Positions 38,395-44,396 of a stretch of 64,000 nucleotides of DNA are shown here, in pieces; within the stretch, counting starts at the first letter, position 1; each line of letters starts with the position of its first letter. The stretch lies in NCBI RefSeq assembly GCF_044647545.1, contig NZ_CP172818.1; one strand, 5' to 3'. Under the pieces are notes generated by a model. The model was given only the letters and a program-made list of their open reading frames with translations, did no database searches and was not told the DNA's origin. The position numbers and the translations under genes were made by a program. Source of the DNA: Escherichia coli. GTDB taxonomy: Bacteria > Pseudomonadota > Gammaproteobacteria > Enterobacterales > Enterobacteriaceae.

Positions 38395-38426
38395 AAAAAA
38401 CCCGCTTCAAAAAGCGGGTTTTTTAT
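38395..38426. terminator. Bidirectional intrinsic terminator between convergent tatE and lipA
   Basis: aaaaaacccgc ttcaaaaa gcgggtttttt: A-tract, stem, T-tract. Confidence 0.8.
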
Positions 38427-40582: not shown

Positions 40583-40841
40583 GCACTTACTCCAATTTTA
40601 TTCATGGAAAAATAATATTAAAAAAAATTACAATAATCTTATGTCTAATTGGAACGGAACGCTTTTGCTCACCATAATCAACTATTTCAATAAGTTAATC
40701 AATGGGGTGAGTTACGGAGCAAGGCGTAGCATCGCATTTCTGCTAGTGATAAAGAAAATATACAAACGCGAAGGAGATGTAAAGCATTAGCAGGTATTAT
40801 GAGTAATGACCCAGTGTAAATTGGGCCATTGATGTATGCAA

Positions 40842-41483
40842 TTAAGCGGTAATATATTCGAAGTCAGGATTGTTTAGTAGCGCTAAAATATTTTCCAGTA
40901 AACGCGGTGCAATATTATTAGTCGTCGCTTCGGGTTTCCATTGTGATATTTTAGCCATTTCCATTCCGGCATACCCACAAGGATTAATACGTAAAAATGG
41001 TGAAAGATCCATATTGACGTTTAATGCCAGACCGTGGAATGAACAACCGCGTCGAATACGTAAACCCAGTGAGCAAATTTTCTTTTCCCCGACATAGACA
41101 CCAGGCGCGTCAGCCCGAGGATGCGCTTCTATACCCAGTTCAGCCAGGGTATTCACCACTGTTTGCTCAAGCAAGGTTACCAGTTCACGCACACCGAGTT
41201 TACGGCGTTTCAGGTTAAGCAACACATACATCACCTGTTGCCCCGGCCCGTGATAAGTCACCTGCCCACCGCGATCGCTCTTAATCACCGGAATATCACC
41301 CGGCATTAAAATGTGCTCCGCTTTTCCTGCCTGCCCTTGGGTAAATACCGGATAGTGCTCGACCAGCCAGATTTCATCAAGGGTACTTTCATCGCGGGTA
41401 TCGGTGAATTCATGCATAGCCTGGGAGATTGGCTCGTAAGGCTGAAGACCGAGCTGGCGGACAAGAATTTTATCCTGATACAA
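40842..41483 (-). CDS. lipB: Octanoyltransferase (lipoate-protein ligase B)
   Basis: 213 aa. Confidence 0.92.
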
Positions 41484-41583
41484 AACGGCATCTCCGTGGA
41501 GAATGAGTAAAAGTGGGGGAAAAGTATATCACAGCGAGGAGAGGGGAGTTACCCGACCAGGAGCCGGGTAACGGAGAAGCGAG

Positions 41584-41847
41584 TTACAGAACCATGCGGA
41601 CAATATCGATTTTGCCCAGTTCTTCATACAGTGTTTCAACCTGCTCGATATGAGTCGCGTTGATAGTGATAGATACCGAGTGGTAGTTGCCTTTGCTGCT
41701 TGGTTTTACCGTTGGGGTGTAGTCACCTGGCGCATGGCGCTGTACCACTTCAACCACCTGATCAACCAGCTCAGGTAACGCCTGCCCCATAACTTTGTAA
41801 GTAAAAGGAGTAGGGAATTCAAGCAGTTCGTTAAGTTTGGTTTTCAT
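41584..41847 (-). CDS. ybeD: UPF0250 family small protein
   Basis: 87 aa; lies between dacA and lipB. Confidence 0.9.
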
Positions 41848-41876
41848 GTCAGCTCCGGCGTAACGTAATTAAATAG

Positions 41877-41908
41877 CAACTCCCGCCAGAAGGCGGGAGT
41901 TTTTTACT
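41877..41908. terminator. Terminator-like hairpin between dacA and ybeD
   Basis: 9-bp stem actcccgcc / ggcgggagt with 4-nt loop, followed on the plus strand by tttttt; both flanking genes are on the minus strand. Confidence 0.55.
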
Positions 41909-41956
41909 GATGCTTAGTATATGGGGACGGAAATTACACTTTCAAGTGTTCGATTT

Positions 41957-43168
41957 TTAACCAAACCAGTGATGGAACATTAATTTAATGTAATCAATGA
42001 TTTTGCCGAAGAAGTTGCCTTCCGGGATTTCTTGCAGCACAACCAGCGGGCGTTGTTCGATCGTTTTGCCATCAAGCTGGAAGTTGATAGTACCGACGAC
42101 CTGATTCTTTTGCAGCGGCGCATGCAATTCACTGCTGTTCAGCACATAGCTGGCTTTCAGATCTTTCATGCGGCCACGCGGAATGGTCAGATACACGTCT
42201 TTATCAACACCTAACGAAGCGCGATCAGAATCACCAAACCAAACCGGTTCAGAGGCGAACTCTTTACCTACTTTCAGTGGGTTAACGGTTTCGAAGAAAC
42301 GGAAGCCCCAGGTTAGCAGTTTTTTACTTTCGGCTTCACGGCCTTTAAAAGTACGTCCGCCCATCACCGCAGAGATCAAGCGCATCTGGCCTTCAGTCGC
42401 AGAAGCAACAAGGTTGTAACCTGCTTTGTCAGTGTGTCCGGTTTTGATGCCGTCGACATTCAGGCTGTTATCCCATAACAGGCCGTTACGGTTCAGCTGG
42501 CGAATACCGTTAAACGTAAATTCTTTTTCTTTATAGATCGAGTATTCATTCGGTACGTCACGGATCAACGCCTGGCCGATCAGCGCCATATCTCGCGCGG
42601 AGCTGTACTGACCATCAGCATCCAGACCATGTACCGTCTGGAAGTGGGTATTTTTCAGGCCCAGGGCGTTAACGTAGCTGTTCATCAAGCCAACAAAAGC
42701 GTCCTGGCTACCAGCGGCAAAATCGGCCATGGCGACACAAGCATCGTTACCCGATTGCAGGTTAATACCGCGGATTAGCTGAGAAACCGGAACCTGCATG
42801 CCCGGTTTGAGGAACATCAGTGAAGAACCTTTAAACACCGGGTTACCGGTGGCCCATGCGTCGTTGCCGATAGTGACTAAATCAGTTTCTTTAAATTTAC
42901 CGGCTTTCATTGCCTGGCCGATAACGTAACTGGTCATCATTTTGGTCAGGCTGGCAGGATCGCGGCGGACATCTGCGTTCTGTTCGGCGAGCACTTTGCC
43001 GGAGTTATAGTCAATCAGGATGTAGGACTCCGCATCGATCTGCGGTACACCCGGGATCATAGTTTTGATATTCAGGTCATCGGCATGTGCAGCAGAGATA
43101 AAGGCTGTGCAAAGAGCCGTGGTGAGCGCCAGGCGCTTCATGATACGAGCGGAAAAAATGGTATTCAT
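41957..43168 (-). CDS. dacA: D-alanyl-D-alanine carboxypeptidase (PBP5)
   Basis: 403 aa; signal peptide; active-site SxxK as SLTK. Confidence 0.96.
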
Positions 43169-43307
43169 GGTCTGAACTACGACATCCGTGATGGAATTAA
43201 AAAAAGTGCCCTACTATAGCAAATGCACTACCGGCAGGCATCTGACTTTCCGCGTGACTTTGTTAACGTCATTTACAGAAATTGACACATCAGATGCCTG
43301 CTTTACG

Positions 43308-44396
43308 CTACTGCGCGGTGGTAATAAATGACTGTAATTGGGCTTCGGTTTGCAAACGTTGCTGCAAGGTACTGGCTTCGGCTTTGCTGGCGAATGGGCC
43401 AAGCTGGATCCGCCAGACCGCGCCATTTTGAGTTACGCGACCGGGGACGCCGAACTTCTGTCCCAGTTGCTGTTGGTACTGTTGCGCACGAGCCTGATCG
43501 CTAACGGCCCCGACTTGCACCATAAAGTTGCCGCTGGCGCTTTGTGAGGCGGCTTGCGGTGTCACCATTGCAGGCGAGGTTGCAGGCGTTGTCGAGGGGG
43601 CTGTAACAACGGGCTGTGGTGCAGGTGTTGGTTCGCTGCCTTCCAGAACACCAGGCGCTAAGGTCGTTGGTGCACCGAGGAAACCGCTGCTGGTTACCGG
43701 CGCGCCGGTCGGATCTTCGCTTTTTAGCGTCGAATTACTGACCGGAAGAATGTCACCCTGCGGGCCAGACACTGAACTTGTTCCCGCGCCGCCGCTTAAA
43801 TCGGGAGGTGCAGGCAGGGCGTAAGTCTGTTTAGCAACTGTGGTACAGGCCATACCAGGACCAGAAAGCGAACCATCCTGGGCGACAATAATCGGATCGA
43901 TACGAACTTTGGTGTTGTTTGACGTGTTAAGACGGTCAGCTGCCGCGCGAGAAAGCGAAATAACGCGGTCGTTGCCGTAAGGACCGCGATCATTAATGCG
44001 CACCACGATCATTCGCCCGTTAGCCAGGTTAGTGATTCTGGCGTAGCTGGGGATCGGAAGCGTTGGATGGGCCGCCGTCAGCTGTGTCGGATCGAAAGCT
44101 TCGCCAGAGGCCGTCAGGTTACTGCCGGGTTCGGCATCATAGATTGCCGCCAGTCCCGCCTGGCTAAATCGAGACGGATCCTGCACGATTTTGTAGCTTT
44201 TACCGTCGCGCTGGTAATCCTGATTTGCCGTCGCGTTCAGTGGTTCGAAACGCGGGTCCGCCCCGCTAATTTCAACTATGGGGCCGTTACATACCGCAGG
44301 CTGCGGTACACTTACCGTCTGTTGCTGACCATCATCGCTTGTACATGCCGCGAGCATTCCTGCCGCGATGCAGATCCCGAGCCACTGCTTACGCAT
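43308..44396 (-). CDS. rlpA: Septal lytic transglycosylase lipoprotein RlpA (DPBB plus SPOR domains)
   Basis: 362 aa; lipobox LAACTS; Pro/Thr-rich linker; C-terminal SPOR-like region. Confidence 0.93.
   Translation of the reverse strand: MRKQWLGICIAAGMLAACTSDDGQQQTVSVPQPAVCNGPIVEISGADPRFEPLNATANQDYQRDGKSYKIVQDPSRFSQAGLAAIYDAEPGSNLTASGEAFDPTQLTAAHPTLPIPSYARITNLANGRMIVVRINDRGPYGNDRVISLSRAAADRLNTSNNTKVRIDPIIVAQDGSLSGPGMACTTVAKQTYALPAPPDLSGGAGTSSVSGPQGDILPVSNSTLKSEDPTGAPVTSSGFLGAPTTLAPGVLEGSEPTPAPQPVVTAPSTTPATSPAMVTPQAASQSASGNFMVQVGAVSDQARAQQYQQQLGQKFGVPGRVTQNGAVWRIQLGPFASKAEASTLQQRLQTEAQLQSFITTAQ

Follow-up and report, generated by a model that had tools for sequence, protein, structure and literature searches.

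A hairpin between dacA and ybeD of Escherichia coli as a probable leaky terminator of dacA on the gene strand

The spacer between dacA and ybeD in Escherichia coli contains a hairpin that is followed by six T's on the plus strand, and both neighbouring genes are read from the minus strand. The question raised by this locus is which strand the hairpin serves. An earlier note described it as an intrinsic terminator oriented for the plus strand and proposed that it might work bidirectionally, terminate antisense transcription into dacA or partially insulate ybeD-lipB from dacA read-through. Positions given here refer to the window, a stretch of 64,000 nucleotides from contig NZ_CP172818.1 (GCF_044647545.1) that was analysed as a whole. 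In the dacA-ybeD interval the K-12 coordinate equals the window position plus 620,795, and over the hairpin element the sequences of K-12 MG1655 and the window do not differ. Our answer, to which we assign a probability of roughly 0.8, is that the hairpin is a leaky, intrinsic-type terminator of dacA on the minus strand, placed inside the ybeD-lipB leader and passed by every recorded ybeD transcript. The features on which the argument depends are as follows.

40842-41483, minus strand: lipB
41584-41847, minus strand: ybeD coding sequence (DUF493; open reading frame list), the first gene downstream of the hairpin
41853-41856, minus strand: Shine-Dalgarno sequence GGAG of ybeD, 5 nt before the ATG, as read from the sequence
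41867-41877, minus strand: imperfect U-tract GCUAUUUAAUU, with mapped RNA 3' ends at 41871-41874
41878-41901, minus strand: probable terminator stem-loop AACUCCCGCC-UUCU-GGCGGGAGUU, from sequence, folding and covariation
41900-41905, minus strand: A6, the T6 of the plus strand, which lends the plus face the look of a canonical terminator
41911, minus strand: start site (A) of ybeD-lipB, K-12 662,706, 5 nt after TATACT and 10 nt before the stem
41916-41921, minus strand: -10 hexamer TATACT, from a promoter scan and conservation
41920-41941, minus strand: predicted CRP box AAGTGTAATTTCCGTCCCCATA, which fills the promoter spacer and has TGTAA in place of TGTGA in E. coli
41940-41945, minus strand: -35 hexamer TTGAAA, inside the dacA 3' UTR, from the promoter scan
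41957-41959, minus strand: dacA stop codon, from which the 3' UTR extends about 86 nt to the mapped 3' ends
41957-43168, minus strand: dacA (open reading frame list)

The genes dacA, ybeD, lipB, ybeF and lipA all lie on the minus strand, and no convergent transcription units meet at the hairpin. The spacer between dacA and ybeD is 109 nt long and contains the inverted repeat of the hairpin. A 1-kb query around the hairpin was present in 5,424 of 5,426 complete E. coli genomes, under dacA, ybeD and lipB. The length of the dacA 3' UTR is also given as 86 nt in Supplementary Data 4 of the TRS study (PMC10687069).

On the plus strand the hairpin (41878-41901) reads AACTCCCGCC-AGAA-GGCGGGAGTT, with a 10-bp stem, seven G-C pairs and a 4-nt loop, and the 9-bp pairing actcccgcc/ggcgggagt reported in the earlier note lies inside this stem. 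The first two T's of the T6 run form the outermost stem pairs. The minus-strand reading of the element is AAAAAA-CUCCCGCC-UUCU-GGCGGGAG-UUGCUAUUUAAUUACG. A 43-nt segment containing the hairpin folds at -19.3 kcal/mol as plus-strand RNA and at -20.4 kcal/mol as minus-strand RNA. Shuffled segments had means near -7 kcal/mol (z = -5.7 on both strands), and none of 200 shuffles folded as well. The hairpin was also the top-ranked terminator-like site in a consensus scan of 12 kb, where it was called on both strands; the generic terminator pattern showed no enrichment in that scan (18 found, 13.9 expected). Thus, folding against shuffles and the rank in the scan rule out a chance match, and the hairpin with its T6 is real. 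A literature search found no paper quoting the hairpin sequence, and an Rfam scan of 41000-43500 with a permissive E-value found no family matching it. That scan gave two hits, both dismissed as chance: a miRNA match, and a partial alignment of 19.6 bits with the terminator stem of the Pseudomonas rnk leader, for which the gathering score is 55.

The two faces of the hairpin differ in the tract that follows the stem. The T-tail score of the plus face was 4.46, compared with 2.43 for the minus (sense) tail GCTATTTAATT. The sense U-tract of E. coli has six U's in 11 nt with a longest run of three. Its score falls in the top 3.6% of the window's 15-mers, yet well under the 4.5-5.5 of three mapped terminator faces of the window (tatE/lipA, 4.50 on the plus and 4.66 on the minus strand; cspE, 5.47). 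Judged from its sequence only, the plus face looks like the more canonical terminator in E. coli, and it would probably stop a polymerase arriving from the opposite direction. The convergent tatE/lipA junction (38395-38424) carries a perfectly symmetric A6-stem-T6 hairpin, ACAAAAAACCCGCTTCAAAAAGCGGGTTTTTTATC, a textbook bidirectional terminator that was used as a positive control.

The earlier note proposed strand-specific mapping of RNA 3' ends as the check and took an absence of ends from both strands as the outcome that would speak against a terminator. Published maps place 3' ends at the hairpin on the minus strand, at K-12 662,666-662,669 (window 41871-41874), 4-7 nt past the stem. The TRS study (PMC10687069) reports a minus-strand terminus with its dominant position at K-12 662,666-662,668 (window 41871-41873), found in libraries made by the authors as well as in two re-analysed data sheets, and classes it as "Primary" for dacA. 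The p values of this terminus range from about 1e-42 to below 1e-150, its low-read-through statistic R is 0.88-0.98, and the dacA RNA ends ...GGCGGGAGUUGCUAUUU. SMRT-Cappable-seq, in which full-length 5'-triphosphate transcripts are sequenced (Yan et al. 2018, PMC6131387), places a termination site at 662,669 (window 41874) in both M9 and Rich medium, with dacA-only transcripts starting at 664,001. The label "novelTTS" given to this site means that it matched no experimentally known EcoCyc terminator at the time. The Term-seq lists of Adams 2021 did not call the minus-strand dacA 3' end, though the flanking ybeD and rlpA ends were called. The TRS authors noted that many termini are unique to each dataset (PMC10687069), so we read the missing call as a difference in threshold or dataset. 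The site was also absent from the bicyclomycin-responsive read-through list in file 2 of Adams 2021, and the Cappable-seq 2016 tables contained no match for it.

A plus-strand transcript stopped by the T6 face would be expected to end near K-12 662,703-662,705. No plus-strand 3' end at 662,70x was found in the Term-seq lists of Adams 2021, in TRS or in the complete SMRT-Cappable TTS table, an absence that may merely reflect a lack of antisense transcription. It carries some weight, however, since the TRS tables do report both strands at tatE/lipA in the same window (K-12 659,220 plus and 659,185 minus; PMC10687069). The dacA element resembles the tatE/lipA terminator in having an A-run on one side of a hairpin and a T-run on the other, and the plus-face scores are similar (4.46 and 4.50). 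The tatE/lipA terminator is symmetric (4.50/4.66), lies between convergent genes and has ends on both strands, whereas the dacA element is asymmetric (2.43/4.46), lies between co-directional genes and has ends only on its weaker-looking strand. The plus-strand orientation given in the earlier note is thus not supported by the mapped ends, and its bidirectional or antisense roles are plausible from the sequence, with no sign of use.

Termination at this site is partial, at about two-thirds in M9 for polymerases that arrive from dacA. In M9, 36 SMRT-Cappable-seq reads end at 662,669, 17 pass and two end within 50 bp downstream; in Rich medium, 29 end, two pass and 48 end within 50 bp downstream (PMC6131387). 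The operon table of the same study contains the read-through variants dacA-ybeD-lipB and rlpA-dacA-ybeD. The M9 reads and the existence of dacA-ybeD-lipB transcripts support the partial insulation of ybeD-lipB from dacA that the earlier note had proposed.

The hairpin also lies downstream of a promoter. The pair TTGAAA-18-TATACT (minus strand, 41945-41916) agrees at 10 of 12 positions and was the best promoter-like match in 12 kb. Its hexamers were kept in all 19 of the Enterobacteriaceae genera examined, related versions were present in Erwinia, Tatumella, Yersinia, Budvicia, Proteus and Utexia, and in every lineage examined the promoter lies upstream of the whole hairpin. The start site at 662,706 is listed from the dRNA-seq of Thomason 2015 in Supplementary Data 4 of TRS (PMC10687069) and was found independently by SMRT-Cappable-seq for the operon b0631|b0630 (ybeD-lipB), which matches a RegulonDB operon (PMC6131387). 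Counted from this start, the stem occupies +11 to +34, the mapped 3' ends fall at +38 to +41 and the ybeD ATG is at +65. The terminator therefore lies between a start site and the start codon of the gene, which is the placement of an attenuator. The ybeD transcripts of the operon table begin only at 662,706, at 664,001 (the dacA promoter) and at 665,332 (upstream of rlpA) (PMC6131387). Because the nearest of these promoters lies between the dacA stop codon and the hairpin, every recorded ybeD transcript crosses the hairpin. Expression of ybeD therefore requires a leaky terminator, with which the weak U-tract and the measured read-through agree. Folding of the ybeD leader gave no competing antiterminator, only the terminator hairpin and a weak closing helix of 5 bp, and no leader peptide or open reading frame was evident in the leader from the open reading frame list. 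In this fold (41848-41911), the closing helix pairs the 5'-terminal UCAGU with GCUGA between the Shine-Dalgarno sequence and the AUG, a pairing to which no weight was given.

The predicted CRP box is degenerate in E. coli. The TGTGA half is present in most of the other Enterobacteriaceae genera examined. In EMSA experiments (PMC4398509), the E. coli probe showed no CRP binding, and the site-1 probes of Enterobacter, Klebsiella and Salmonella were bound. Both the overlapping CRP site and the U-tract of the terminator therefore appear to have been weakened in Escherichia. A study of Shigella predicted an sRNA, "Ssr5", from a promoter and a terminator on the gene strand of the dacA-ybeD spacer; Table 1 of that study holds no positive RT-PCR entry for it.

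Two neighbouring junctions were also inspected. At the rlpA-dacA junction (43195-43225, minus strand), the dacA start site (K-12 664,001) is the A in brackets in GGGC[A]CTTTTTT. It lies just before a U-run with 3' ends at 663,995, and more ends occur at 664,014-664,018. The K-12 offset shifts by 1 above about 43200, since the window has T7 where K-12 has T6. The downstream promoter of this junction starts near or inside the upstream terminator region, and the ybeD promoter instead starts upstream of the entire hairpin. Among the 3' ends that Adams 2021 called in this region, that of ybeD (K-12 662,335-662,338; window 41540-41572, minus strand) was the strongest. It is preceded by a hairpin, GUUACCCGGCUCCUGGUCGGGUAAC (-17.2 kcal/mol), and next by UCCCCUCUCCUCGCU, a C/U-rich stretch that lacks a U-run. 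Such an arrangement is no canonical intrinsic terminator, and the end may be protected or factor-dependent. The own start site of lipB is just downstream of it, at K-12 662,309 (window 41514).

The orientation of the hairpin was further examined in 80 ybeD loci, taken from the reference genomes of three families (Enterobacteriaceae, Erwiniaceae and Pectobacteriaceae), together with four distant loci (Proteus, Yersinia, Budvicia and Utexia). A hairpin was found within 50 nt upstream of the ybeD ATG, mostly at 20-31 nt, in 72 of 74 distinct sequences, and T-tail scores were computed from the G-C-bounded stem core. The sense tail exceeded the antisense tail in 62 of these 72 loci (median 3.44 versus 2.18), with typical sense tails such as ATTTTTTGATG, TTTTTTGTCG and CTGTTTTTTATG and runs of T5-T7 in the orthologues. 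The antisense tail was the higher in nine of the 72, among them each of the four Escherichia sequences (antisense 4.0-4.5, sense 2.43). Compared with ATTATTTTTTTACG of Salmonella, the tail of Escherichia, GCTATTTAATTACG, shows a loss of three T's; the Salmonella-type form of the E. coli tail GCTATTTAATT is ATTATTTTTTT. Relative to Salmonella, the upstream A-run grew from A4 to A5-A6 in Escherichia. Runs of A5-A6 were found only in Escherichia and A4 in a few relatives, and the A-run is absent from Klebsiella and from most Citrobacter and Enterobacter-group genera. These comparisons also count against a plus orientation, the T-run being on the gene strand in most loci and the A-run being mostly a trait of Escherichia.

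Of the 11 stem pairs in a 63-sequence alignment, eight vary in both arms, over 70 cells, and the covariation score was 0.289, compared with 0.146 in shuffles (none of 500 reached the observed value) and 0.03-0.07 when the partners were slid. The wobble pairs of the core stem favour the sense RNA by five to one, a number too small to stand alone. Yersinia, Budvicia, Proteus and Utexia have the same order of promoter, hairpin and sense T-run. The side of the T-run, the covariation, the wobble pairs and the distant lineages together indicate that the gene strand is the conserved, ancestral orientation. On this comparison, the T6 of the plus strand only complements an upstream A-run that is lineage-specific and occurs mainly in Escherichia.

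The stem core CUCCC/GGGAG (alignment columns 29-33 and 46-50) was nearly invariant, being kept in 60-63 of the 63 distinct sequences, and the outer and inner stem pairs covary freely around it. It is also kept in Yersinia and Budvicia and not in Proteus or Utexia. This conservation would fit a constrained G+C-rich stem that turns over slowly. A few loci of Erwinia and Pantoea (L040, L048 and L059) have AGGGGAGGC...GCCTCCCT instead, 72-74 nt upstream of ybeD. The palindrome was also considered as a DNA site for a dimeric protein. This was rejected, since the arms covary rather than keep one half-site sequence, and since loops of 3-8 nt, stems of 7-17 pairs and G.U wobbles on the sense strand occur across the loci.

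The mechanism we propose is as follows. A polymerase coming from dacA passes the inverted repeat, which is rich in G+C, before it reaches the interrupted U-tract GCUAUUUAAUU. The majority of dacA transcripts end 4-7 nt past the stem, as the published 3'-end maps show. A fraction would read through because the U-tract is weak, and the resulting dacA-ybeD-lipB mRNA is seen among the full-length reads. The dacA terminator would be deliberately incomplete. The conserved sigma-70-type promoter in the dacA 3' UTR starts transcription 10 nt upstream of the stem, so that the hairpin becomes +11 to +34 of the ybeD-lipB leader. We infer that the hairpin would also cap the output of ybeD-lipB from its own promoter, which would yield a short RNA (about 40 nt), and that the 5' end of the transcripts that escape may be protected or stabilised by it. 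The hairpin with T6 on the plus strand would be the mirror image of the upstream A-run. The poor sense U-tract of E. coli, the better plus face and the missing call of this 3' end in Adams 2021 count against reading the hairpin as the dacA terminator. In addition, a mapped 3' end alone could arise by termination, by exonuclease trimming up to a stable hairpin or by RNase E cleavage.

Three other readings were weighed against a leaky dacA terminator. A functional bidirectional or antisense terminator, whose plus face would have been selected to keep antisense transcripts arriving from the ybeD/lipB side out of dacA, seems very unlikely to us. The fold of the plus-strand RNA (-19.3 kcal/mol, z = -5.7) and a plus tail that matches both tatE/lipA faces agree with it, and the A-run rose to A5-A6 in Escherichia as the sense tail decayed. 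The three 3'-end datasets nevertheless hold no plus-strand end at 662,70x, and upstream of the hairpin the plus strand has neither a gene nor, within about 1 kb, a consensus-like promoter; the nearest promoter-like site on that strand is at 40829-40858, and such matches were not enriched. Moreover, the neighbours are co-directional, whereas known bidirectional terminators have a convergent setting, the antisense tail is the higher in only nine of 72 loci, and most genera that keep the hairpin lack the A-run. The missing gene, promoter and mapped end on the plus strand and the unconserved A-run are what make a selected antisense or bidirectional function unlikely.

RNA processing, in which transcripts read through and are then trimmed to the hairpin by an exonuclease or cut by RNase E, is a quite unlikely source of the minus-strand 3' end. 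The weak U-tract (2.43) is in its favour, the ends lie within AUUU/AAUU in an AU-rich unpaired segment, and cleavage between AU and UUA fits the loose preference of RNase E. The 48 Rich-medium reads ending within 50 bp downstream suggest heterogeneous ends, and the ybeD 3' end, after a hairpin without a U-run, indicates that hairpin-protected ends occur at this locus. However, the sense T-run at the same position in 62 of 72 orthologous hairpins is a signature of intrinsic termination and not of a stability hairpin, and the spacing of 4-7 nt from stem to end is what intrinsic termination would give. A sharp end is also seen in SMRT-Cappable-seq, even though the method selects primary transcripts by their 5'-triphosphate (PMC6131387), and the bicyclomycin-responsive list lacks the site. 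The conserved sense T-run of the other genera speaks for termination as the ancestral mechanism. A regulated leader, either a conditional attenuator of ybeD-lipB or a gene for an sRNA of about 40 nt (41911 to 41871), is improbable to a similar degree. The promoter that precedes the whole hairpin in every lineage, the nearly invariant stem core across families, the Ssr5 prediction and the different read-through in M9 (17 pass) and Rich medium (two pass) are in its favour, but for the M9/Rich contrast the read counts are small and the "within 50 bp" class is ambiguous. An antiterminator fold, a leader peptide and an Rfam match were all lacking, Ssr5 has no positive RT-PCR entry, and no abundant short RNA was present in the datasets checked, which would miss an RNA of about 40 nt. 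A short U-tail is also a poor 3' end of the Hfq type, which counts against an sRNA.

A leaky terminator of dacA has close relatives among known systems. The SMRT-Cappable-seq catalogue includes leaky intrinsic terminators between co-directional genes, for example dapA-bamC and prs-dauA, and a less well defined U-tract goes with more read-through (PMC6131387). The dacA element is like these in having a G+C-rich hairpin, a U-containing tract and a sharp 3' end a few nt past the stem, with part of the transcripts continuing into the next gene to give operon variants. Unlike them, it is also part of the downstream leader, because the ybeD-lipB promoter lies upstream of the hairpin in the 3' UTR. 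Type I 3'-UTR-derived sRNAs such as MicL and DapZ have a promoter in the 3' UTR and share the terminator of the parent gene. The dacA-ybeD arrangement is similar, with a promoter after or inside the upstream gene and a transcript that meets the terminator ending the upstream mRNA, but its documented product is a read-through ybeD-lipB mRNA and not a stable small RNA.

From public E. coli datasets the 3' end of dacA, the start site of ybeD-lipB and the read-through variants are already known, and the significance of the finding is little beyond correct annotation. It does hold a lesson of method, that in a hairpin flanked by A- and T-runs the longer T-run is an unreliable guide to the working strand. 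At dacA-ybeD the weaker-looking face is the one used and conserved, and its weakness lets ybeD-lipB be expressed. Throughout Enterobacterales the ybeD-lipB promoter lies upstream of the dacA terminator, so that all ybeD transcription must pass it. This order-wide placement of a promoter that fires into a hairpin 4-10 nt downstream, together with the nearly invariant CUCCC/GGGAG core, may be a dedicated control device of ybeD-lipB, beyond its part as the dacA terminator, that Escherichia has retuned, a reading that we regard as unlikely. If it were true, read-through would depend on the start site or the condition, or the terminated RNA of about 40 nt would have an activity of its own, and the erosion of the U-tract, together with that of the overlapping CRP box, would be how Escherichia adjusted the device.
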